From Deltaproteobacteria bacterium YD0425bin51 (GTDB lineage Bacteria > Desulfobacterota > Desulfobacteria > Desulfobacterales > YD0425bin51): 64,000 bases of DNA. Positions within the stretch are counted from its first letter, which is position 1, and the number at the start of each line of letters is the position of its first letter. The notes under the pieces were generated by a model. It ran no database searches. It saw only the letters and a list, made by a program, of their open reading frames with translations, and had not been told where the DNA came from. The stretch lies in contig PDZS01000015.1 in the NCBI GenBank assembly GCA_002753225.1, positions 27,223 to 91,222 of the forward strand. Reading direction: 5' to 3'. A program made the position numbers and the translations under genes. Of the stretch, positions 5,261 through 56,348 are shown one piece after another.

Positions 5261-5923
5261 TTATTTTCCTAATAAAAAATCAATTAGAGGTGTTGCAAAA
5301 AAATTAATTACTTTGTTTAAAGAATCTGTTGCTAAAAGAATCATTATTATTATTAAACCAAAGCGCTCAATAGAGTTAAAACTTTCTCGTATTTTGTCTG
5401 GCAAAAATATTGCTAAAATACGGCTGCCGTCTAGAGGAGGGATGGGAATAAGATTAAATACAGCTAATACTGAATTTATGATTATGCTGTTTATAAGCAT
5501 ATAAAGAAGATCCATAATAATTGGTTTTAATAAGGTAGTGGCCCATGACTTCTCAAAATAAATGAAAATATGCAGAATTATGGCTGACAAAACTGCTAAA
5601 ATAAAATTAGCTGTAACGCCTGCAGCAGAAACATAAATAGTACCTTTTTTAAAGTTATGAAAATTATAAGGGTTTACTGGTACTGGCTTTGCGTATCCAA
5701 AAATAAATGGTGAGCCGGAAAGTTTTAAGAGCAAAGGGAGAATAATTGACCCTACAATATCCAAATGGTATATAGGATTTAAAGTAAGTCTTCCAGCTAG
5801 TTTTGCTGTCATATCTCCCATTTTATATGCAACATATCCATGTGCAACTTCATGGCATGTTACAGAAAGAATAAGAGGAACAAGCATTACCACCCATTTA
5901 TTTAATTCAATATCAAGAGACAT
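5261..5923 (-). CDS. Site-2 protease family zinc metalloprotease (M50, SpoIVFB-like)
   Basis: 220 aa polytopic membrane protein with HEVAHGYV (HExxH) in the first TM region and a later LDG motif. Overlaps the upstream gene by 11 nt. Confidence 0.8.
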   Translation of the reverse strand: MSLDIELNKWVVMLVPLILSVTCHEVAHGYVAYKMGDMTAKLAGRLTLNPIYHLDIVGSIILPLLLKLSGSPFIFGYAKPVPVNPYNFHNFKKGTIYVSAAGVTANFILAVLSAIILHIFIYFEKSWATTLLKPIIMDLLYMLINSIIINSVLAVFNLIPIPPLDGSRILAIFLPDKIRESFNSIERFGLIIIMILLATDSLNKVINFFATPLIDFLLGK

Positions 5924-8555
5924 AATTTTTCACAAAAGAAAGTTCATCTTCTCTGTTTGATAGAAGACCGTTTAGTTTTGCATCCAAAACTGCGTTTAAA
6001 ATTTTGCCATAAATTGGTCCTTCTTTTATATTTATGGCTCTTAAATCCTTACCAGTTATTGAAATTTTTTCATTTTTAAGCTGTGTCAAATAAAATGATA
6101 TAGCTTTTTTAACTTTTTCATATTTTGTTTGAGCCATCATATAAAGTATAAGCTCAGTTTTAAATATAGAGAGTTTACTATAAAGCAAGCTGTTTTGAGT
6201 AGGTAAGTTTTGCTCTAGCCAGAAAAGAATTTGATTAGCTATTATTCTTTCTTTGGAAAAAATATCTCTCTGACGAACAGGAAGTTCAAAATTGTTACAT
6301 ATTTCTTCACTGATTTTTTGATCTAAATTTTTAAGAAGCGCTAGAAAATAAATGGCCCATTTCATTAATCTTTCTTCTAAAAAAAGCAAATCATGCCATG
6401 CTAATGTTTTTTTTACTGAATCAAGTTGGGATATTATTTCTTTATTTAATTTAATTAATGGGTGTATCGCACTTAAAAGATTATAATCATTCAATCTAAT
6501 GATTGCATTTGTTGGATTTTCTTCTTCTAATATTTGTTTTACTTCAGCAAAAACTCTTCTACCACTTAAGCGTTTAAAAAAATCCATTTTCACTGCATTT
6601 TCAATAAGACTGGAAGTTAACTTACCTATTGTAAATCCAAATCTTTGTTCAAATCTTATTGCCCTGAAAATTCGGGTTGGGTCTTCAACAAAGCTAAGGT
6701 TATGTAAAACTCTAATAATTTTTTCCTTTAAGTCTTTTTGTGAACCAAAAAAGTCAATAAGAGTGCCAAATTTATCATGGTTTAACTGAATAGCTAAAGC
6801 ATTTATTGTAAAATCCCTTCTGAATAGATCTAATTTTATTGAACTCATTTCAACAACAGGGAGTGCTGCTGGAAATTTATAATATTCTATTCTAGCAGAT
6901 GCTACATCTATTTTAGATCCATCAGAAAACTTGATAATCGCTGTTCCAAAGGTTTCGTGAGAATATATCTTTGCTTTAAATATAGATGCAAATTTTTTAG
7001 CAAAAGCTATTCCATCCCCTTCTATTACAATATCAATATCTTCGTTAGTTTTATATAGAAATAGATCTCTTACAAAACCTCCTACTATATAGGCGTTTAA
7101 ATTGAGTTCATCTGCTATTTTTCCTATATCTTTAAGCTTTTTTATTAAACGATCAGATAATCTTTCATTCATGAATTTTATAATATTTCTGGTTCTAGGT
7201 CCTACAGACTCATTTAAATATATATTTCCTTTATCTGATTTTATATGGGTTTGATATACAAGTACATTCAAAAGATCAGTTCTTGTTATAACACCTATAA
7301 GCTTATTATTATCAACAACTGGTAAAATTCTCTGTTTATTATCAATTATTTTTGTCTGTATTTCACTAAGATGAGCGTCAGGATTTACAGTTACAATTTC
7401 TGTATTCATATATTCACAAACAGGTACTATATCCAATTTATGAAACAGAGCTTTTTCAATGATCTGTCTGGATATAAAACCAAGGATAGAATCATTATCA
7501 GTTACTATAAGAGTATTTATATTATAGCGTGTTAAAATTGTGCTTGCTTCCCTGCAGGTTACATTTGGCGAAATTGTAATAACCGGGAATGACATAAGCT
7601 CTTTTGCATAACGTCTTGCTTTAATTTTTTGATAAAGAGTGCTTATAAGCTTTTGTTCAACTTGAGTAAGAGTTTCTCCTTTAACTGTAGCTGATGCTGC
7701 AAAACTATGTCCTCCACCCCCAAATGTTAATAAGATATCTGCTACGTCAACTTCAGAAATTCTGCTTCTTGCAACTATATAAATATTATCAGCCATTCTA
7801 GCTATTACAAAAATAGCATTTAGATTCTCCATTTTAATAATTTTTTGTACTAGAAGTGCAATGTCTGCTACATAATTATCTCTGGAAAAAATTGTAATTA
7901 CTATATCAACGCCATGAATGCTGTAATGAGTTAAGGACTGAATCATGTCGCTAAGTAGTCCTATTTGCTCTGGTGTTATTTCTCTTGATATGAGGTTAGC
8001 TATAATATTTAAATTAGCACCTTTGGATAATAAAAAAGCAGCGGCGCTGAAATCTTTTTCTGTTGTTGAAGAGTAAGTAAATGAACCTGTGTCTTCATAT
8101 ATACCAAGACACATTATTGTAGCTTCATCTGGAGATATGGGAATTCCTTTATTTTTTATTATTTCAGTTAATATAGTTATAGTTGCTCCTGTTAATTCAT
8201 TTACTTCAAAATTGCTTTTGATATCGTTTATTGCTGGAGGATGGTGATCATAAATATGAATCTCAATATTTGATTGTTGAAGAAGAGAAGAAAGCTTTCC
8301 GATGCGATTAGCTTGTCTTGTATCTACTAAAACTAGTCTTTTTACAGAAGAAAGATCTATATCTTTAATATCTGCCATATTAAAAAGATAGAATATGGAT
8401 TTTATGAAAAAGTTTCTTAAAGTTTTTTCTTGAGAGCCTGGAAAAACTAAAAGAGCATCTGGATAGAGCTTTTGAGCAGCAAGCATTGAGGCTACAGCGT
8501 CAAAGTCAGAATTTATATGGGTTGTAATAACAGTAAGGTTTTGATTATTTTGCAT
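5913..8555 (-). CDS. Multidomain DHH/DHHA1 phosphoesterase - CBS pair - poly(A) polymerase/CCA tRNA nucleotidyltransferase family protein
   Basis: 880 aa. The N-terminus has DHH (HINSDFDAVAS, YDHHPP) and DHHA1 (GGGGHSFAAS). The middle has two CBS modules. The C-terminal half carries the Pol-beta NTase head GGFVRDLFL...DIDIV plus the tRNA-NT tail. Confidence 0.75.
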   Translation of the reverse strand: MQNNQNLTVITTHINSDFDAVASMLAAQKLYPDALLVFPGSQEKTLRNFFIKSIFYLFNMADIKDIDLSSVKRLVLVDTRQANRIGKLSSLLQQSNIEIHIYDHHPPAINDIKSNFEVNELTGATITILTEIIKNKGIPISPDEATIMCLGIYEDTGSFTYSSTTEKDFSAAAFLLSKGANLNIIANLISREITPEQIGLLSDMIQSLTHYSIHGVDIVITIFSRDNYVADIALLVQKIIKMENLNAIFVIARMADNIYIVARSRISEVDVADILLTFGGGGHSFAASATVKGETLTQVEQKLISTLYQKIKARRYAKELMSFPVITISPNVTCREASTILTRYNINTLIVTDNDSILGFISRQIIEKALFHKLDIVPVCEYMNTEIVTVNPDAHLSEIQTKIIDNKQRILPVVDNNKLIGVITRTDLLNVLVYQTHIKSDKGNIYLNESVGPRTRNIIKFMNERLSDRLIKKLKDIGKIADELNLNAYIVGGFVRDLFLYKTNEDIDIVIEGDGIAFAKKFASIFKAKIYSHETFGTAIIKFSDGSKIDVASARIEYYKFPAALPVVEMSSIKLDLFRRDFTINALAIQLNHDKFGTLIDFFGSQKDLKEKIIRVLHNLSFVEDPTRIFRAIRFEQRFGFTIGKLTSSLIENAVKMDFFKRLSGRRVFAEVKQILEEENPTNAIIRLNDYNLLSAIHPLIKLNKEIISQLDSVKKTLAWHDLLFLEERLMKWAIYFLALLKNLDQKISEEICNNFELPVRQRDIFSKERIIANQILFWLEQNLPTQNSLLYSKLSIFKTELILYMMAQTKYEKVKKAISFYLTQLKNEKISITGKDLRAINIKEGPIYGKILNAVLDAKLNGLLSNREDELSFVKNYVS

Positions 8556-30904: not shown

Positions 30905-32551
30905 TTACTTTAGTGAATTGTATAATATAAAACCGCCTGAAATTCCTTTGGCATTAAATCCATATTGCCTTAAAATTCTTGCTGCAATATATGATCTTTT
31001 ACCAACAACACAATATGTAAGTATTTCTCGATCTTTAGGAATTTCTGAGATTTTATCTCTAATTTGATGCAAAGGAATATTAATGCTTCCTTGAAGGTGG
31101 CTTTTTGAATATTCAAAAACTGTTCTGACATCTATAATGTAAGGAGAATTATCATTTATATTTTCCCAATGAGCAACAGGAGAATAACCTCTAATTGAAT
31201 TTGATGCAATCATACCAGCCATATTTACAGGGTCTTTTGCTGAACCATATGGTGGAGCATAACATAATTCAGCTTCTTCAAGGTCAAAAACAGTTCCATT
31301 TTTTTGAATAGCCATGGAAATAACGTCAATCCGCTTATCAACTCCTGCCATACCTACAGCTTGTGCGCCTAAAATTTTTCCATCTGACTGTGAAAATATG
31401 AGCTTCATTGTTATTGTTTTAGCATCAGGGTAATAACCAGCATGATTGTCCGGATGAAGGTAAATCTTTTCATATTCATTCATTTTATTTCTTTTCAGTG
31501 CTTTTTCTGAAAGACCTGTAAATGCAACAGTTAAACCTAGAATACCGCATATAGATGTTCCTTGAACTCCTCTGAATTTAGGCAATGGGTCTTTTCCAAA
31601 AAGAACGTCAGCAACTATTCTACCTTGTCTATTAGCTGGACCAGCAAGCGGAATAAGTGCAGGTATTCCTGAAATATAATCTTTAACTTGAACTGCATCA
31701 CCTACTGCATAGATATTTTCATCACTGGTCTGCATATATTCATTAACTTCAATTCCTCCAAGTTTGCCAATGGATAGTCCTGCCTGTTTTGCCAGATCAA
31801 TTTCCGGTTTAACACCAATACTTAAAACCACAATATCAGATTGTATAACTTTCCCTGTATTAGTTAAAATTCCTATACTTCCGTCCTTTTCCTGTTTAAA
31901 TCCTGTTACAGAAGTTTTTAATAAAAGAGAAATATCATATTTCTTTAGGTGTTCATGAATAAAGCTTGCAATTTCTGGATCAACTGGAGGCATAACTTGA
32001 GGCTGCATTTCAATAATAGAAACATCCAAACCATGCCTTTTTAGATTTTCAACCATTTCAAGCCCAATAAAACCTCCTCCAACAACAACAGCCCGTTTTA
32101 TATGTTTCTGTTTTATCCAGTTTATTATATTTCTGGAATCAGCTATGTTTCGCAGAGTAAATATGCCTGGTAAATCGATTCCATCTAGTTTAGGTTTGAT
32201 TGGAGAAGCTCCAGGAGATAGAAGGAGTTTATCGTATGATTCTTTATAAATTTTACCTGTTTTTAAGTCCTGAACTTCAATCTCTTTTTTTTCTCTATTT
32301 ATTGAGCAGACGTTATTTTCAGTTCTTACTTCAATATTAAACCAGCCTTTAAACATTTGAGGAGAAGCTACAAGAAGGTTTTCTTCTTTTGTAATTACAT
32401 TTCCAACATAATAAGGAAGTCCGCAGTTTGCAAATGAAACAAATTCACCTCGTTCAAAGATAATAATTTCAGTATGTTCTGAGAGCCTTCTAGCACGAGC
32501 TGCGCATGATGCTCCTCCTGCAACACCTCCGACAATTAATAATCTCTTCAT
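30905..32551 (-). CDS. CoA-disulfide reductase / NADH oxidase family flavoprotein with C-terminal rhodanese domain
   Basis: 548 aa. FAD motif IVGGVAGGASCAAR, redox-active Cys in SFANCGLPYY, a second NAD-binding GGGFIGLE, and a C-terminal rhodanese CVVGKRS active-site loop. Confidence 0.8.
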   Translation of the reverse strand: MKRLLIVGGVAGGASCAARARRLSEHTEIIIFERGEFVSFANCGLPYYVGNVITKEENLLVASPQMFKGWFNIEVRTENNVCSINREKKEIEVQDLKTGKIYKESYDKLLLSPGASPIKPKLDGIDLPGIFTLRNIADSRNIINWIKQKHIKRAVVVGGGFIGLEMVENLKRHGLDVSIIEMQPQVMPPVDPEIASFIHEHLKKYDISLLLKTSVTGFKQEKDGSIGILTNTGKVIQSDIVVLSIGVKPEIDLAKQAGLSIGKLGGIEVNEYMQTSDENIYAVGDAVQVKDYISGIPALIPLAGPANRQGRIVADVLFGKDPLPKFRGVQGTSICGILGLTVAFTGLSEKALKRNKMNEYEKIYLHPDNHAGYYPDAKTITMKLIFSQSDGKILGAQAVGMAGVDKRIDVISMAIQKNGTVFDLEEAELCYAPPYGSAKDPVNMAGMIASNSIRGYSPVAHWENINDNSPYIIDVRTVFEYSKSHLQGSINIPLHQIRDKISEIPKDREILTYCVVGKRSYIAARILRQYGFNAKGISGGFILYNSLK

Positions 32552-34995: not shown

Positions 34996-35958
34996 ATGGA
35001 ACTTATAAATTTAGAAGATGATTCTGTTGAAAAAAAAACATATGATTTATTAATTTTAGGCGGAGGTGCATCAGCAATGACAGCTGCTATTTATGCAGCT
35101 AGAAAGATGTTAAAGATTGCTTTGATGACCAAAGATATAGGTGGACAGATTACTTATACTTCAGAAATAGAGAACTATCCAGGGTTCCAAGCAATTACAG
35201 GAAATGAGCTTACAGATAAATTTCAAGCCCAAGTTAAGGCTTTTGATATTCCCATATGGCTGGACAATATTTCTAAAGTCCGAAAAGAAGAGGATTTGTT
35301 TTATGTTGAAACAGAAAGTGAAACAGTTTTTAAGGGGAGAACTCTTATAGTTGCTACTGGAAAACGTTATAGATCACTTAATGTTCCTGGAGAAAAGGAA
35401 TTTGTTGGAAGAGGAGTAGCTTATTGCAGCACATGTGATGCTCCTTTTTATAGAAATAGAAATGTTGTAGTTGCAGGAGGAGGAAATTCAGCCGTAACTG
35501 CTGCATTAGATTTGCTTAAAGTTGCAAAACATGTTTATTTAGTCAATTATTCCAAAGGGCTGCAAGCAGACCCAATTATGATATCTTCTCTAGAAAAATT
35601 TAAGGATAAATTAACGCTTTTGGATGAAAGTGCCATAACTAAAATTGAAGGTGATAAGTTTGTAACAGGTATTTATATAAAAGATAGAAAAGATAATAAA
35701 GAAAGAATAATTGAAGCAGAAGGAATTTTTATTGAAATTGGTTTGATACCAAATTCAGAAATAGTAAAAGATTTTGTTGAGCTTAATAAAAATAATGAAA
35801 TTGTTGTTGATTATAAGTGTTCTACTAATATACTAGGGTTATTTGCAGCAGGTGATGTAACAACAGTTCCACACAAACAGATTATAATAGCTGCAGGAGA
35901 GGGAGCAAAAGCAGCACTGTCTGCTTATGAATATCTATCTAAACAGGGCTATGTCTAA
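34996..35958 (+). CDS. Thioredoxin-disulfide reductase-like flavoprotein
   Basis: 320 aa. FAD motif LILGGGASAMTAAIYAA, redox CxxC in YCSTCDAPFY, NADPH-binding VVAGGGNSA. Confidence 0.75.
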   Translation: MELINLEDDSVEKKTYDLLILGGGASAMTAAIYAARKMLKIALMTKDIGGQITYTSEIENYPGFQAITGNELTDKFQAQVKAFDIPIWLDNISKVRKEEDLFYVETESETVFKGRTLIVATGKRYRSLNVPGEKEFVGRGVAYCSTCDAPFYRNRNVVVAGGGNSAVTAALDLLKVAKHVYLVNYSKGLQADPIMISSLEKFKDKLTLLDESAITKIEGDKFVTGIYIKDRKDNKERIIEAEGIFIEIGLIPNSEIVKDFVELNKNNEIVVDYKCSTNILGLFAAGDVTTVPHKQIIIAAGEGAKAALSAYEYLSKQGYV

Positions 35959-51074: not shown

Positions 51075-51096
51075 AAAGTAGAGGAGTAAATATATA

Positions 51097-53517
51097 ATGA
51101 CAACAGATACATCCCGTATAGGTGTTTATGTATGCCACTGCGGTTTAAATATAGCTCAGACAGTGGATTGTTCGGAAGTTAAAGAAAAAGCATCCAAATT
51201 AGAAGGAGTTGTTATATCAAAAGATATAGCTTACGCATGCTCAGAACCAGGTCAAAAAGAAATTAGAGATGACATATATAAAAACGAGTTAAATAGAATT
51301 GTTATAGCATCCTGTTCTCCTAGGCTACATGAGCCTACTTTCCGTAACATGATGGTTGATGCTGATCTAAATCCATATTTGCTGGATATGGCAAATATTC
51401 GTGAACAATGCAGTTGGGTTCATATGTCTGATAAAAGAGGAGCTACTGATAAAGCCATTGATCTTGTTAAAATGTCAGTGGGAAGAGTAAAAGAGCTTCA
51501 GCCTCTTTTTGAGGAAAGACTTTCTCTTACAAAAAGAAGTTTAGTCATTGGAGGAGGAATAGCTGGAATTCAGGCTGCTTTAGATCTTGCAGATAATGGT
51601 TATGAAGTTGTTTTAGTTGAAAAGAATGCATCCATTGGCGGAATTATGGCTAAATTAGATAAAACATTTCCAACAATGGATTGTTCCATCTGAATTTTAG
51701 GTCCTAAAATGACAGATGTCGGTCGACATCCTAAAATTAAACTTTTAACTCTTAGTGAAGTTGTTGATGTAAAAGGTTACGTTGGTAATTTTGAAGTAAA
51801 AATTTTAAAAAGACCAAGATATATAGAAGAAAAAGATTGCACATCATGCGGAGATTGCACTAAGGTATGCCCAGTTGTAAGACCAGATGAGTTCAATGTT
51901 GGATTATCTTCTAGGAAAGCAATATTTAAACCCTTCCCACAAGCTGTTCCTTCAGCGTATATTTTAAATATTTCTGAATGTCTTGGTCATAATCCTTCAG
52001 TCTGCGCTAAATGCCTTGAAGCTTGTGATAAAAAATGTATAAATTTTCATATGTCAGACAAAGAATTAGTTGAAAAGGTAGGTACAATTGTTGTTGCAAC
52101 AGGTGTTGAGCCTTATGATCCTAAAATTCTTGATGAATATGGATATACCCGTTTTGACAATGTTGTAACCAGCCTAGAATTTGAAAGATTAGTAAATGCC
52201 GGAGGTCCAAGCAAAGGGGATTTAATTCGTCCAACTGACATGAAAAGACCAAAATCAGTAGGTTTTATTCAATGTGTAGGATCTCGAGCTAAAAGGAAAG
52301 GAAAAGAGTACTGCTCTAATGTTTGCTGTATGAATACTATTAAAAGCACTCTTGTATTAAAAGAACATTTTGAAGATATTGAAATAAAAGTATTTTACAT
52401 TGATATCAGAGCGTTTGGAAAAGGTTTTGAAAATCTTTTTAAAAGAAGTAGAGAACTTGGAGTTCATTATTTGAGAGGACTTCCTGGAAGAGTTGAAGAA
52501 CTTGCGGATAAAAGTCTTCGCGTTGCAGTAGAAAATACAAGCACTGGAAAAATAGAATTTTATGATTTAGATATGCTTGTTTTAGCAATAGGATTAAACC
52601 CATCTAAAAGCACACAAAAAATTCAGGAAATGCTTGGTCTTCAACTTACTCCTGATGGTTTTTTCCTTGAAGCCCATCCCAAGCTTCAACCTGTAGATGC
52701 TGCAACTCGTGGTATCTTTTACGCAGGATGTGCTGAATCTCCTAAAGATATTAAAGATACTGTAACTCAAGCTTCAGCAGCTTCAAGCAGAGCTATAAGA
52801 ATTATGCATAAAGGAGAAATTTTAACTGAGCCAATTACGTCAGAAGTGATTGTTAATCTGTGCAAAGCATGTGGAAAATGCGCTGAAGTATGTCCCTATA
52901 ATGCTATTTCTGTAGATGTTAAGAAAAAAATATTAGCGAAAGTTAATTCAGCAGCATGTGCTGGATGTGGAACTTGTGCAGCAGAATGTCCTTTTGGTGC
53001 AATCCAAATGAATCATTTTAGCGATGTTCAGATTACAAATCAGATAGATGAACTCCTCTCTGATGACTCTGAGCAAAAAATATTAGCCTTTGCATGTAAT
53101 TGGTGTTCCTATGCTGGAGCAGATTATGCTGGAGTTTCAAGAGTTCAATATCCATCTAATGTCAGAATAATAAGAACAATGTGTTCAGGTCGTGTTAGTG
53201 AAGATTTTATATGGCGCGGATTTTTAAAAGGAGCGCCTGTTATATTAGTTAGTGGTTGCCACATTGGTGATTGCCATTATATCAATGCAAATCATTGGAC
53301 TGAGAAAAGAATAGAAAAAGTAAGAGCTAAAATGGAAAAAATGGGAATCAGACAAGATAGGCTCCAATTGGCATGGATTAGCGCAGCAGAAGGGATTTTA
53401 TTCGGAGAAGTTATGAATAAAATGGAGGTGTTAAGAAAAAGTGTTTCATCTAAGGAAATTGCAGAAACAATTGGTATTTTGACAAACAAACTTAAAAACA
53501 TAAGGACAAAAACATGA
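51097..53517 (+). CDS. hdrA: Heterodisulfide reductase subunit A-like flavoprotein fused to an MvhD-like domain; selenoprotein with in-frame UGA (Sec) at 51691..51693
   Basis: One continuous frame. GGGIAGIQAALDLA (FAD) ... KTFPTMDCSI-TGA-ILGPKMTDVGRHPK aligns with HdrA FPTNDCSMCILAPKLVEVGRHP, so the TGA sits at a conserved Cys. Two ferredoxin-type 4Fe-4S motifs (CxxCxxCxxxCP) follow, then a C-terminal MvhD-like domain (CNWCSY...CSGR...GCHIGDCHY). Confidence 0.8.
51694..51737 (+). promoter_or_regulatory. Bacterial SECIS-like stem-loop downstream of the hdrA UGA
   Basis: Apical hairpin GATGTC-GGUC-GACATC (51715..51730), whose GGUC loop matches the E. coli fdhF SECIS apical loop, begins 21 nt after the UGA. 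A lower stem AUUUUAGG (51694..51701) / CCUAAAAU (51730..51737) can enclose it. Confidence 0.6.
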
Positions 53518-53605
53518 AAATAAAAACAAATCTTAAAAGTGGCGGGCTTTTTAGTGAAGAAAATACAGGTTTATCATTATATGCAGCAGTAAGAGGGTAA
53601 GCAAA

Positions 53606-54757
53606 ATGATAGAACTTAGAAAATTTCTTGCTCCAGAATTTGTATTTGGGGAAGGAGCAATACATTTAGCAGGACAATATGCAAGAAATTTTAGCGCACA
53701 AAAAGTGTTAGTTGTAACTGATTCTGGTGTTATTCTCGCAGGATGGGCAGATAAAGTTACAAAATCATTAGAGAGTTCAGGGATTAACTATTCTATATAT
53801 CATAATGTTTCTCCAAATCCTAGGGCAGAAGAGGTGATGGAGGGAGCAGATTATTATCATAGCGAAGGATGTGATATCATAATTGCTGTTGGCGGCGGCA
53901 GTGCTATAGATTGTGCAAAAGGTATAGGTATTGTCAGCACAAATAAAAAAAATATTCTTGAATTTGAAGGTGTTGATAATGTAAGTATTCCAGGACCTCC
54001 TTTAATATGTATTCCAACCACATCAGGAACATCAGCAGATGTTTCACAATTCGACATAATTACAAACTCAAAAGATAAAATAAAAATTGCAATAATAAGT
54101 AAAGCAATGGTGCCTGATGTGGCACTTATTGATCCGTCTACTGCTTTAACTATGGATACTTATTTAACTGCATGTACAGGTATTGACGCCTTTGTTCATG
54201 CCATAGAAGCTTTTGTTTCAACTGCAAGTTCTCCTATTACAGATCTGCACGCCCTAGAAGCTATAAAATTGATTCATGAAAATCTTCTTAAAGTTATTAA
54301 TAATCCAAATGATATTATACTTCGCAGCAAAATTATGTTTGCAAGCCTTCAGGCAGGACTTGCATTTTCAAATGCAAGTCTTGGAGCAGTACATGCAATG
54401 GCACATAGTTTGGGTGGATATTTAGATCTTCCTCATGGTGAATGTAACAGCATTTTAATAGATCATGTAGTTGCTTTTAATTATAAAGAGGCAAATGATC
54501 GTTTTAATAAAATAGGTGATGTCTTAAAATTAGATTTAACTAGTATGACTTCTAAAGAAAAACAGAAAGCAGTACTAGAAGAAATTACCAGATTTAAAAT
54601 AGCTGCTGGTATTAGTTCTACACTTAGCAAAAAAGGAGTTTCAATTTCAGATATCCCTGAATTATCTAAAAAAGCATTATGCGATCCATGTATTGTTACA
54701 AATCCTAGACGTCCAAATAAGCGTGATATTGAGGTAATATATGAAGAAGCCATCTAA
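53606..54757 (+). CDS. Iron-containing (group III) alcohol dehydrogenase
   Basis: 383 aa. GGGSAIDCAKG motif and conserved His-rich metal site (HAMAHSLGG). Confidence 0.88.
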   Translation: MIELRKFLAPEFVFGEGAIHLAGQYARNFSAQKVLVVTDSGVILAGWADKVTKSLESSGINYSIYHNVSPNPRAEEVMEGADYYHSEGCDIIIAVGGGSAIDCAKGIGIVSTNKKNILEFEGVDNVSIPGPPLICIPTTSGTSADVSQFDIITNSKDKIKIAIISKAMVPDVALIDPSTALTMDTYLTACTGIDAFVHAIEAFVSTASSPITDLHALEAIKLIHENLLKVINNPNDIILRSKIMFASLQAGLAFSNASLGAVHAMAHSLGGYLDLPHGECNSILIDHVVAFNYKEANDRFNKIGDVLKLDLTSMTSKEKQKAVLEEITRFKIAAGISSTLSKKGVSISDIPELSKKALCDPCIVTNPRRPNKRDIEVIYEEAI

Positions 54758-56348
54758 TATTCATGATCAATGGAAAGATATGCGTAATCGCATTATTGGA
54801 TTTGGCGAAAAATCAATAAAAAAAAGCTATTACCCAGAATTACGAGAACAGCTTTTAGAGCTCACTGAGACAAAAGAAAAATATCGTCAGCTATTTGAAT
54901 ATGCAACAGATGCTATTTTTATCATTCAAAATCAATTTATTAAGTTTCCAAACCCTAAAACCCTTGAGCTTCTTGGTTATTCATCAGAAGAATTAGCAAA
55001 TACTGATTTTTTTAGCTTAATTAAGGAATCAGATATACCTTTAATTAAAGAATGGTGTCAAAAAAAACATGCAAATGATACAGAAAATAGCCCAATATCA
55101 TTTGTTATTTTACCTAAAAATAGAGAAAAATTATGGGTTGAACTAAATTCAGTAATAATAAATTGGGAAGGTAAACCTGCTCTCTTAAATTTTTTAAGAG
55201 ATATTACTGAGAAGAAAAGTCTTGAAACTCAACTTTTGCAGTCACAAAAGATGGAAAGTCTAGGGACTCTTGCAGGAGGTATTGCTCATGATTTTAACAA
55301 TCTTCTTATGGGAATACAGGGAACTTTATCCCTTACTTTGCTTGAGTCTAATATAACTGATAATATTTCCATTCAATTAAAAAAAATTGAGCAATATGTA
55401 AAACAAGCATCTGAGCTTACAAACCAATTATTAGGTTTTGCAAGAAAAGGAAAATATGAAGTTAAACCAGCTAATATTAATAATCTTGTAGAAAAAACCT
55501 CTATGCTCTTTGGCAGGACAAAAAAAGAAATTACCATAAATTCTCAATATCAAAAAGATGTATGGACAGTTGAAGTTGATATGTGCCAACTGGAGCAAGT
55601 TCTCCTTAATCTTTATATAAATGCTTGGCAGGCAATGCCAAATGGTGGGGAAATTCATCTTAAAACTAAAAATGTCGTTTTAAATAAAGACAATCTAAAA
55701 TCGATTTCTGTTACGCCTGGAAAATATGTAAATTTTTCTATTAGTGACACAGGTGTTGGAATAGATGAAAAAACAGTTCAAAGAATTTTTGAACCTTTTT
55801 TTACTACAAAAGAGATTGGGAGAGGAACTGGACTTGGTCTTGCGTCAGCTTATGGAATTATTAAAAATCATGGTGGATTTATCACAGTAAATAGTAAAAT
55901 TGGTGTTGGATCAACTTTTGATATATTTTTGCCAGCCTCAGATAAAAAACTTCCTATTGAGAATAGAACAGAAGAAGAAATAATAAAAGGGGATAAAACA
56001 GTTTTAATTATTGATGATGAGAAAATGGTACTGGATGTAATGCCTAAAATGTTAAATAAACTAGGCTATAAAACTCTAACTGCACAAAATGGTAAAGAGG
56101 CAATAGAGATTTATGAAAATAATATTAAAAAAATTGACATTGTTATTCTTGATATAATTATGCCAGAAATGAGCGGAGCAGATGTTTTTAAACATTTAAA
56201 GGAAATAGATCCAAATGTTAAAGTGCTTCTCTGCAGCGGATACAGTATTGAAGATGTAGCACCTCAATTACTTAATGAGGGGTGTAAAGGGTTTATAAAA
56301 AAACCTTTTAATATGATACAATTATCACATAAGTTAAAGGAGATTTAA
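54741..56348 (+). CDS. PAS-domain hybrid sensor histidine kinase with C-terminal receiver
   Basis: 535 aa. PAS, H-box GIAHDFNNLL, HATPase (DTGVGID, GTGLGLASA), REC (DIIMPEMSG). Start overlaps the ADH gene end. Confidence 0.85.
   Translation: MKKPSNIHDQWKDMRNRIIGFGEKSIKKSYYPELREQLLELTETKEKYRQLFEYATDAIFIIQNQFIKFPNPKTLELLGYSSEELANTDFFSLIKESDIPLIKEWCQKKHANDTENSPISFVILPKNREKLWVELNSVIINWEGKPALLNFLRDITEKKSLETQLLQSQKMESLGTLAGGIAHDFNNLLMGIQGTLSLTLLESNITDNISIQLKKIEQYVKQASELTNQLLGFARKGKYEVKPANINNLVEKTSMLFGRTKKEITINSQYQKDVWTVEVDMCQLEQVLLNLYINAWQAMPNGGEIHLKTKNVVLNKDNLKSISVTPGKYVNFSISDTGVGIDEKTVQRIFEPFFTTKEIGRGTGLGLASAYGIIKNHGGFITVNSKIGVGSTFDIFLPASDKKLPIENRTEEEIIKGDKTVLIIDDEKMVLDVMPKMLNKLGYKTLTAQNGKEAIEIYENNIKKIDIVILDIIMPEMSGADVFKHLKEIDPNVKVLLCSGYSIEDVAPQLLNEGCKGFIKKPFNMIQLSHKLKEI

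Follow-up and report, generated by a model that had tools for sequence, protein, structure and literature searches.

The window, by which we mean the whole 64-kb stretch of DNA that was analyzed, contains two open reading frames (ORFs) at 51097..51693 and 51709..53517, which lie in a common frame and are separated by a TGA (51691-51693) and 15 nt, just as the sequence-only reading had described them. The first ORF comprises 198 aa and is terminated by this TGA, the second one comprises 602 aa, and the 15 nt between them read ATT TTA GGT CCT AAA. Reading through from 51097 to 53517 yields 806 codons with codon 199 as the sole internal stop, embedded in the context DKTFPTMDCSI*ILGPKM. A six-frame scan of the 64 kb for TGAs with a long open frame on both sides returned a single site, which is 51691-51693. 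The start of the gene, termed hdrA2 here, at 51097 is backed by alignments with homologues beginning at residues 3-7. Scans for promoter-like and terminator-like sequences around hdrA2 unveiled nothing above chance. All features of the locus are compiled in the table.

Table. Features of the hdrA2 locus (window coordinates)
Feature	Position	Strand	Remarks
Shine-Dalgarno sequence GAGGAG	51081..51086	+	read from sequence; 10 nt 5′ of the hdrA2 ATG
hdrA2, predicted selenoprotein gene	51097..53517	+	806 codons, TGA terminator at 53515-53517; product is an HdrA-MvhD fusion
FAD-binding GxGxxG motif (G152-G157)	51550..51567	+	Pyr_redox_2, FAD_oxidored and NAD_binding_8 begin at residues 148-150; aligns with 5odc_A
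In-frame UGA, predicted selenocysteine codon 199	51691..51693	+	aligns with Cys197/Sec197 of archaeal HdrA
Window-specific extended stem	51693..51738	+	51693-51701 (AAUUUUAGG) paired to 51730-51738 (CCUAAAAUU), around the SECIS hairpin
Bacterial SECIS hairpin GAUGUC-GGUC-GACAUC	51715..51730	+	apical loop GGUC at 51721-51724
Inserted ferredoxin-like domain, CxxCxxCxxxCP (residues ~241-300)	51817..51996	+	Pfam Fer4_2 at 241-260; aligns with 5odc_A
C-terminal 2x[4Fe-4S] ferredoxin domain (residues ~581-640)	52837..53016	+	Pfam Fer4_7, Fer4 and Fer4_9 at 584-639
Fused MvhD/FlpD domain (residues 662-777)	53080..53427	+	Pfam FlpD, E 1.4e-43

The read-through product, and only this product, matches the NCBIfam model NF040770 (CoB-CoM heterodisulfide reductase HdrA2) with 1179.4 bits (curated cut-off: 1100 bits), the match extending over positions 1-775 of the 777 profile positions and over protein residues 7-787. 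The Pfam domain Pyr_redox_2 covers residues 148-344 and spans the UGA, and the HdrA chain 5odc_A aligns with residues 6-656 (E 1.5e-229), again without a gap at the UGA. The proposal that both ORFs form one gene is therefore supported by a full-length match to the HdrA2 model as well as by Pfam and PDB alignments which run gapless across the TGA. Residues 658-774, the MvhD part, align with 5odc_D, and the MvhD chains 5odc_D and 9sw2_D both match at E ~1e-36. With a full-length model match above the cut-off and an HdrA domain set composed of a Cys-rich N-terminal domain, a thioredoxin-reductase-like FAD-binding domain and both the inserted and the C-terminal ferredoxin domains, to which an MvhD/FlpD domain is fused, the protein belongs to the HdrA2 family. 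The gene was originally named hdrA; its product is more exactly an HdrA2, i.e., an HdrA-MvhD fusion and not a plain HdrA.

The TGA had also been suggested to occupy the known Cys/Sec position of HdrA proteins. An alignment with Cys- and Sec-containing HdrA sequences confirmed that it coincides with the conserved Cys: without any gap it faces Cys197 in 'DKTFPTNDCSICILAPKM' of 5odc_A and X197 of 9sfi_A. Cys is likewise found at the UGA position in 11 full-length, more distant bacterial homologues, in which the motif reads DKTFPT[IM]DCSICILGPK. For M. maripaludis HdrA, Sec197 has been reported (PMC13518236), and Cys197 in the HdrA of 5odc is a ligand of the N-terminal [4Fe-4S] cluster in the partner protomer (PMC9012536). 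In the 80 best-matching loci (one genome per species, all Desulfobacterota, loci 72-79% identical) the codon equivalent to codon 199 is TGA in every single case and never TAA or TAG, and loci of the Desulforhabdus amnigena type also have a TGA at this codon. The motif DKTFPTMDCSI*ILGPK is invariant across the 80 species except for two single substitutions. The locus hence exhibits what characterizes bacterial selenoproteins, namely a Cys/Sec pair and a UGA which is kept in orthologues with the coding sequence maintained downstream.

As hdrA2 comes from a metagenome-assembled genome and a change from TGC or TGT to TGA needs only one substitution, a nonsense mutation (and thereby a pseudogene) or a miscalled base had to be considered. 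However, the same TGA is present in all 80 related species and in two sister assemblies of the source organism, both halves of the gene are intact over 806 codons in a genome with a G + C-content of 32%, and the SECIS hairpin described below is intact, too. On both sides of the UGA dN amounts to 0.16-0.27 with dS being saturated, and strong purifying selection acts on both of them. The conservation of the TGA and the selection data effectively refute a pseudogene or an assembly error, to which we attribute practically no probability.

Downstream of the UGA, the coding sequence contains a hairpin with a 4-nt loop (G-G-U-C) and a 6-bp stem, and 27 nt (51694-51720) lie between the UGA and the first loop base 51721. 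All these values are within the limits of the bSECISearch consensus, which are a loop of 3-9 nt, an upper stem of 4-16 bp and a distance of 16-37 nt between UGA and loop, together with a G at one or both of the first two loop positions and, as a rule, G or U as the next base (PMC13188914). In 73 of the 80 relatives the stem consists of 7 bp; in the window it has 6 bp because of an A·C mismatch at positions 24/41 (51714/51731; counted from the U of the UGA), where most relatives have a G-C pair. Across the 80 species the helix 24-30/35-41 is 98.8% paired. Pair 29-36 is realized as U-A in 44, as C-G in 27 and as U-G in nine of the 80 sequences, with not a single mismatch, and the covariation score exceeded those of all 500 shuffles and of all slid controls. 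The loop reads GGUC in 79 of the 80 sequences and GGGC in the remaining one (L062). Furthermore, the synonymous-codon entropy of hdrA2 has its minimum, with a mean of 0.31 bit vs. 1.40 bit overall, in codons +6 to +12. GAT, GGT and CAT are fixed in this stretch, whereas the means for conserved Asp, Gly and His columns outside it are 0.89, 1.82 and 0.85 bit, respectively. The SECIS structure is thus kept by selection, as evident from its covariation and from a constraint beyond that of the protein code. Two of the Cys homologues (L086 and L087) share the peptide MTDVGRHP but encode it with other codons and lack the hairpin. The closest full-length homologue (L088) has a Cys codon with the hairpin still being there, which is probably a remnant of the SECIS after a Sec-to-Cys conversion.

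When the region is folded as an isolated piece of 54 nt, the conserved hairpin reaches a pair probability of only ~0.41, as an alternative inner pairing competes with it. The minimum-free-energy fold, with -11.8 kcal/mol (z -2.2), contains the extended stem, whose pairs have probabilities of 0.94-0.97. A lower SECIS stem (4-9 with 42-47), to which this fold pointed, was rejected as a conserved feature, being 61% paired across the 80 species. Another hairpin, which follows the UGA immediately (4-10 with 14-20), pairs perfectly in the window but to only 76% overall; it was not counted as SECIS, as it is largely forced by the codons for ILGPKM and as its loop is too near to the UGA for the bSECIS model. 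Rfam searches of the whole window at gathering thresholds, and of 50-55 kb at E up to 10, returned nothing relevant; Rfam is not known to include a general model for bacterial SECIS elements. The SECIS palindrome at 51715-51730 was also picked up by the terminator scan of the minus strand.

Compared to the SECIS of E. coli fdhF and the bSECISearch model, the hdrA2 element is likewise a stem-loop within the coding region just 3′ of the UGA, with G and U on the 5′ side of a small loop. The apical loop of the fdhF SECIS is also GGUC. Its G and U are located at positions 23-24 (with the U of the UGA as position 1), and those of hdrA2 at positions 32-33. The hdrA2 hairpin also differs from this type in having no evident bulged U and a lower stem that is unconserved in the relatives.

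The two ORFs could in principle represent separate genes for a naturally split HdrA, in which a 198-residue N-terminal protein would assemble after translation with one of 602 residues that starts from ATG 51709. Automatic gene callers give exactly these two products (P0121 and P0002), an AGG is located 9 nt 5′ of ATG 51709, and some bacteria do have split or rearranged hdrA genes (PMC1794560). Such a split would, however, cut through the middle of the FAD domain, precisely at the conserved Cys/Sec codon, and the stop at this site is always TGA and never TAA or TAG. The Met at 51709 is moreover the conserved Met of ILGPKM, which also occurs in the unsplit Cys homologues and in archaeal HdrA, and the relatives do not have a conserved ribosome-binding site 5′ of its equivalent. 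Finally, the 15 nt separating both ORFs code for the invariant ILGPK, with amino-acid selection acting on them in 80 of 80 species. Two separate genes are therefore considered extremely unlikely.

With regard to the genetic code, the 52 long non-overlapping ORFs of the window end in TAA (34), TGA (11) or TAG (7), and nine long ORFs other than the hdrA2 halves end in TGA. As TGA is an ordinary terminator elsewhere in the window, the code is standard. A reassignment of UGA is ruled out by there being only one interrupted gene in 64 kb with TGA as a common stop.

Neither selA, selB and selD nor a gene for tRNA-Sec was found in the 64-kb window or within 10 kb beyond its 3′ end. A tRNA search gave no hit in the window and none in the corresponding locus of a sister assembly (L085), whose continuation beyond the window shows only chemotaxis and signaling genes. 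In an NCBIfam scan of 40 window ORFs, including every ORF of selA, selB or selD length, none of the three was found, and TypA was the sole EF-like GTPase among the scanned ORFs. A tblastn search of the window and 88 loci with SelA, SelB and SelD from E. coli yielded nothing but a cross-match with TypA. The Sec-decoding trait of the source organism is therefore one that we infer. This absence of Sec machinery from the window and the adjoining 10 kb would be in line with the UGA being read through without insertion of Sec, be it by near-cognate Trp or Cys or by Cys on tRNA(Sec), after a partial loss of the Sec machinery or under selenium starvation. The loss of the usual genomic partners of hdrA2 (see below) could mark a lineage in transition, and L088, with its leftover hairpin, exemplifies a Sec-to-Cys conversion. 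Nevertheless, the window retains an intact SelB-type hairpin with its GGUC loop, which counts against such a read-through, as the hairpin would not be expected to stay intact after a loss of SelB-dependent decoding. Lineages giving up Sec switch the codon to TGC or TGT, as seen in L086-L088, and in other genes of the window TGA terminates efficiently. Read-through without Sec thus appears very unlikely, if somewhat less so than two separate genes.

It is, judged from the sequence, highly probable that 51097-53517 is one gene, hdrA2, for an 806-residue FAD/iron-sulfur HdrA-MvhD protein with the UGA at codon 199 being decoded as selenocysteine. As the ribosome nears the UGA, the hairpin at 51715-51730 would be bound by SelB carrying Sec-tRNA(Sec), and SelB, competing with release factor 2, would deliver Sec at codon 199. 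No hairpin of this kind accompanies the second UGA (53515-53517), which would lead to termination. Going by the archaeal structures, the thioredoxin-reductase-like FAD domain would carry the Sec side chain where archaeal HdrA has Cys197. There it may serve as a ligand of the N-terminal [4Fe-4S] cluster in the partner HdrA protomer or, alternatively, as part of a Cys-Sec redox relay between FAD and this cluster.

The gene hdrA2 starts 22 nt after a gene for an alpha/beta-hydrolase and is followed on its 3′ side by genes for an ErcA-like alcohol dehydrogenase and a hybrid histidine kinase; it is thus located just 5′ of a pair resembling the alcohol-sensing ErcA/ErcS. A conserved operon with these neighbors was considered and rejected, as none of the 80 loci has a counterpart of the alpha/beta-hydrolase or of the ErcA-like alcohol dehydrogenase. 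Among the 80 relatives, 68-73 (~85-90%) have the Sec-hdrA2 as the last gene of a three-gene cluster, of which the first gene encodes a flavoprotein of ~1120 residues (NfnB/GltD-like plus HdrA-like, also describable as NfnB/HdrL-like) and the second one an MvhD-ferredoxin-CCG fusion of ~527 residues, which is of the MvhD-HdrC/B-like kind. While the window gene shares the UGA and the hairpin with these Desulfobacterota, it is not part of such a cluster, and the two partner genes were not found in the window. A tblastn search of the window with the MvhD-Fer4-CCG protein of the relatives matched only the MvhD and ferredoxin domains of hdrA2 itself. Among the scanned window ORFs (all but ~14 short ORFs at 15.9-36.5 kb) there was no gene with a CCG domain (hdrB/hdrC) and no hydrogenase gene (mvhA/mvhG). 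As hdrB/hdrC and mvhA/mvhG were not found in the window, the protein is termed HdrA2-like and not assigned as a CoM-S-S-CoB reductase. A rather speculative and, in our estimate, improbable idea is that in a low-G + C lineage of the Desulfobacterales Sec-HdrA2 became uncoupled from its usual partner genes and acquired a lineage-specific extended SECIS stem, and that it might act on its own or with a new partner, for example, in alcohol-linked electron transfer.

Sec-HdrA is an established selenoprotein family of the Deltaproteobacteria (Zhang et al., 2006; PMC1794560), with sulfate reducers and syntrophs as hosts (PMC5109826, PMC1794560). The genes of these bacteria resemble the window gene in having an in-frame UGA with a SECIS 3′ of it in the coding region and are typically split into two locus tags. 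One example is HdrA1 of Desulfococcus multivorans, whose gene is divided into dmul_C02770/80, which was detected by proteomics and whose host genome encodes selA, selB and selD (PMC5109826). In the HdrA of Methanococcus maripaludis (9sfi) and other Methanococcales the same residue is Sec (X197 in 9sfi_A) and the HdrA part has its domains in identical order, but in 9sfi the MvhD/VhuD homologue forms a chain of its own (9sfi_K) and is not fused as in the window protein. According to published work on Sec decoding in archaea (PMC13188914), their SECIS differs from the coding-region bacterial element present in the window gene. The archaeal enzyme moreover acts together with HdrBC on CoM-S-S-CoB. 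Sulfate-reducing bacteria are not known to make CoM-S-S-CoB. The best solved relative is the HdrA of 5odc (Methanothermococcus thermolithotrophicus/Methanothermobacter wolfeii), with which all four HdrA domains align. It differs in having Cys197 in place of Sec and an MvhD subunit that is not fused, and in being part of an HdrABC-MvhAGD complex, the other genes of which were not found in the window.

The expectation that a standard annotation would split or truncate the gene was correct only in part. The gene callers behind the protein collection did so, whereas the sister assembly GCA_015228685.1 has it intact in its NCBI record, with one CDS at the same coordinates and a product of 806 residues, as deduced from the gene table of L085, coordinate mapping and an accession gap (MBF0118792/…794). 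Of the 120 best homologues in the protein collection ~30 are fragments of ~600 residues, and some hdrA2 fragments are named "hypothetical protein" or "hydrogenase subunit delta". As Sec-HdrA is well known in sulfate-reducing bacteria, the finding is correct but ordinary; Sec at this position of HdrA is already established in methanogens and Deltaproteobacteria and no new biology. Its main value is annotation hygiene, as a split annotation hides a protein of the flavin-based electron-bifurcation type and leads to selenoproteins being undercounted in sulfate reducers. In addition, the 80-species alignment provides a clean textbook case of a SECIS located in coding sequence: the element covaries, its synonymous sites are frozen, and it is lost in Cys forms, with one probable remnant.

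The gene hdrA2 consists, as the sequence-only reading had stated, of two open reading frames that share one frame and are separated by a TGA and 15 in-frame nucleotides (see table). Continuous translation yields 806 codons with a single internal stop, codon 199, which lies within DKTFPTMDCSI(stop)ILGPKM. A six-frame scan of the 64 kb found a TGA with a long open frame on both sides at this site alone. Among 52 long ORFs of the window, 34 end in TAA, 11 in TGA (including hdrA2's own terminator at 53515-53517) and seven in TAG. As TGA is thus an ordinary terminator in other ORFs and only one site is interrupted, the genetic code is the standard one, in which TGA is a stop, and the interruption concerns a single gene. 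The 28-codon ORF which overlaps the hdrA2 stop has no Pfam match and probably arose by chance.

Features of hdrA2, its product and its surroundings (window positions unless stated otherwise)
Feature	Position	Strand	Remark
Shine-Dalgarno GAGGAG	51081-51086	+	good; 5' of first ATG
N-terminal ORF	51097..51693	+	ends in TGA 51691-51693
C-terminal ORF	51709..53517	+	same frame, 15 in-frame nt after TGA
SECIS hairpin GAUGUC-GGUC-GACAUC	51715-51730	+	positions 25-40 from U of UGA
7-bp hairpin AUUUUAG-GUC-CUAAAAU	51694-51710	+	perfect; directly 3' of UGA
Extra 9-bp lower stem	51693-51701 with 51730-51738	+	encloses SECIS hairpin; window only
28-codon ORF MKIKTNLKSGGLFSEENTGLSLYAAVRG	53514-53600	+	ATG overlaps hdrA2 stop (ATGA)
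Alpha/beta-hydrolase gene	22 nt upstream of hdrA2		
ErcA-like Fe-ADH and hybrid histidine kinase/response regulator	53606-56348	+	downstream of hdrA2; 17-nt overlap between the two
FAD/NAD-binding thioredoxin-reductase-like domain (Pfam)	residues 148-344		match spans TGA
Inserted ferredoxin-like domain (Pfam)			hdrA2 product
2x[4Fe-4S] ferredoxin domain (Pfam)			C-terminal in hdrA2 product
FlpD/MvhD domain (Pfam)	residues 662-777		C-terminal; E 1.4e-43
Degenerate hairpin GGAUGU-CGGCAA-ACAUCC	L088 4628-4681		after TGC, at SECIS position; -7.6 kcal/mol

The read-through product contains four Pfam domain sets and matches the NCBIfam model NF040770 ("HdrA2") with 1179 bits (cut-off 1100), the alignment covering positions 1-775 of the 777 in the profile. 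Its top solved relative is 5odc_A, the HdrA of the Methanothermococcus HdrABC-MvhAGD complex (E 1.5e-229, residues 6-656), while its tail matches MvhD chains, which are separate in solved complexes. Together, these domain, NF040770 and 5odc/MvhD matches identify the predicted protein as an HdrA-MvhD fusion, of which either half alone would be an incomplete domain.

The TGA had been proposed to occupy the conserved Cys/Sec site of HdrA, and the alignments bear this out. It pairs gap-free with Cys197 in the stretch DKTFPTNDCSICILAPKM of 5odc_A, and it also pairs with residue 197 of the Methanococcus maripaludis HdrA (9sfi_A), which is X in the PDB sequence. Eleven full-length bacterial homologues (58-73% identity) have a Cys at this site, within DKTFPT[IM]DCSICILGPK. 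One HdrA protomer uses Cys197 to ligate its partner's N-terminal [4Fe-4S] cluster (PMC9012536). The residue is Sec197 in the M. maripaludis super-assembly, and it has been proposed to form a Cys-Sec relay linking FAD and that cluster (PMC13518236).

Scanning one genome per species gave, as the 80 best matches, relative loci (72-79% identity to hdrA2), all from Desulfobacterota and including the isolates Desulfatibacillum alkenivorans, Desulfobulbus rhabdoformis, D. elongatus and Desulfogranum marinum. All 80, as well as Desulforhabdus amnigena-type loci, have TGA at this codon; none has TAA or TAG, and the surrounding motif is invariant save for two single substitutions. About 30 of the best 120 matches in the protein collection are fragments of 593-607 residues (77-79% identity), which are the same gene shortened by gene callers; the window's own halves are present there as P0121 and P0002. 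Compared with eight relatives, dN of hdrA2 is 0.16-0.27 with saturated dS both 5' and 3' of the UGA, which shows that the two parts are translated and selected.

The hairpin downstream of the UGA is maintained by selection and fits the published model of bacterial SECIS elements. Its helix is 98.8% paired over the 80 sequences, a seventh G-C pair (24-41) extends the stem in 73 of 80 species, and the loop GGUC is unchanged in 79. Pair 29-36 occurs as U-A (44 sequences), C-G (27) or U-G (nine) with no mismatch. The price of this change is a Val/Ala exchange on one side of the pair, and on the other CGA and CGG are switched. The covariation score was higher than in any of 500 shuffles or any slid control. 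As an independent test at synonymous sites, codons +6 to +12 have the lowest synonymous entropy in the gene (0.31 bit versus a gene mean of 1.40); GAT, GGT and CAT within this stretch are fixed in 82/82, 81/82 and 82/82 sequences, whereas conserved Asp, Gly and His columns elsewhere in the gene average 0.89, 1.82 and 0.85 bit. The bacterial model demands a loop of 3-9 nt, a stem of 4-16 bp and a UGA-loop distance of 16-37 nt (PMC13188914); the 4-nt loop, the 6-7 bp stem and the distance of 27 nt all fit, as does the loop sequence with G in its first positions, the next G and then U. The lower stem is not kept across relatives and was rejected as a conserved feature. The hairpin directly 3' of the UGA is also perfect in Desulfobulbus-type loci, is 76% paired overall and is largely a by-product of the ILGPKM codons.

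A clean control for the SECIS hairpin is given by the Cys-type homologues at loci L086 (Desulfogranum japonicum) and L087, in which the identical peptide MTDVGRHP is encoded by other codons and no hairpin is found. The closest full-length Cys homologue (P0001 at locus L088, 73% identical) has TGC at the codon, followed by a degenerate hairpin which is probably a leftover of a recent Sec-to-Cys conversion. At L088, hdrA2 overlaps a 904-residue FdhA-like molybdopterin gene on its 5' side.

With its full-length HdrA2 match, a UGA kept in every relative locus and a covarying hairpin, hdrA2 is very probably what had been claimed, a single selenoprotein gene whose UGA-199 is read as selenocysteine. 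Following the established bacterial pathway, SelB with GTP and Sec-tRNA(Sec) would bind the GGUC-loop hairpin and mediate this decoding, while the terminal UGA, lacking such a hairpin, would end translation. By analogy with the archaeal structures, Sec199 may fill the Cys197/Sec197 role in an HdrA2 dimer, where the FAD domain meets the N-terminal cluster of the partner. Neither tRNA genes nor selA, selB or selD occur in the 64-kb window or within 10 kb past its 3' end. A host genome devoid of Sec machinery nevertheless appears unlikely, because the hairpin is intact in the window, because lineages abandoning Sec switch the codon to Cys, and because the use of Sec, with selA, selB and selD present, is documented for related Desulfobacterales (PMC5109826, PMC1794560).

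In 68-73 of the 80 relatives (L005-L084), hdrA2 closes a conserved three-gene cluster, with its partners about 0-5 kb upstream: an NfnB/GltD-like and HdrA-like flavoprotein of roughly 1120 residues and an HdrC/B-like MvhD(FlpD)-ferredoxin(Fer4)-2xCCG fusion of roughly 527 residues, followed by Sec-HdrA2. Both partners are absent from the window, and the window neighbours (the hydrolase and the ErcA-like/kinase pair) have no counterpart in any of the 80 loci. The protein is therefore classed as HdrA2 and not as a component of a CoM-S-S-CoB heterodisulfide reductase. This orphan context is the sole mildly unusual aspect of the gene. The ErcA-like iron alcohol dehydrogenase scores 629 bits against NF041833 (cut-off 550); together with the 535-residue hybrid kinase, which has a NahK/ErcS-type C-terminus, it looks like a putative alcohol-sensing regulatory pair.

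The expectation that standard annotation would split or truncate the gene held only for simpler gene callers. The gene table of the sister assembly GCA_015228685.1 (contig JADGCY010000009.1) lists an 806-residue product, whose stop maps to window position 53517, so that its CDS corresponds to 51097-53517. The flanking proteins are MBF0118792.1 (locus tag HQK79_08145), MBF0118794.1 and MBF0118795.1, and exactly one accession number is absent between the two genes flanking hdrA2. From this gap and the 806-residue entry it follows that the NCBI record already holds the read-through gene, so that a public entry for this organism contains the annotated product. The finding is also already known at the family level, with Sec at its documented position: descriptions of Sec-HdrA in bacteria go back to 2006 (PMC1794560), one case comes from Desulfobacterales (PMC5109826), and Sec197 has been seen structurally (PMC13518236).

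Elsewhere in the window, an 816-residue ORF (42892-45342, minus strand) matches the Major Vault Protein shoulder (PF11978, 97 bits), a Vault_3 repeat and SPFH/Band 7; it has no NCBIfam match and is, by its domains, a predicted MVP-like protein in a bacterium. The 880-residue protein at 5913-8555 (minus strand) matches the A-adding tRNA nucleotidyltransferase model over its full length with 1004 bits, below the cut-off of 1440, and has an N-terminal DHH/NrnA-like part plus CBS-like parts. Two thiol-redox flavoproteins lie close together, both below the equivalog cut-off: a 548-residue CoA-disulfide-reductase-like protein that is extended at its C-terminus by roughly 100 residues (30905-32551, minus strand) and a thioredoxin-reductase/AhpF-like protein (34996-35958, plus strand).
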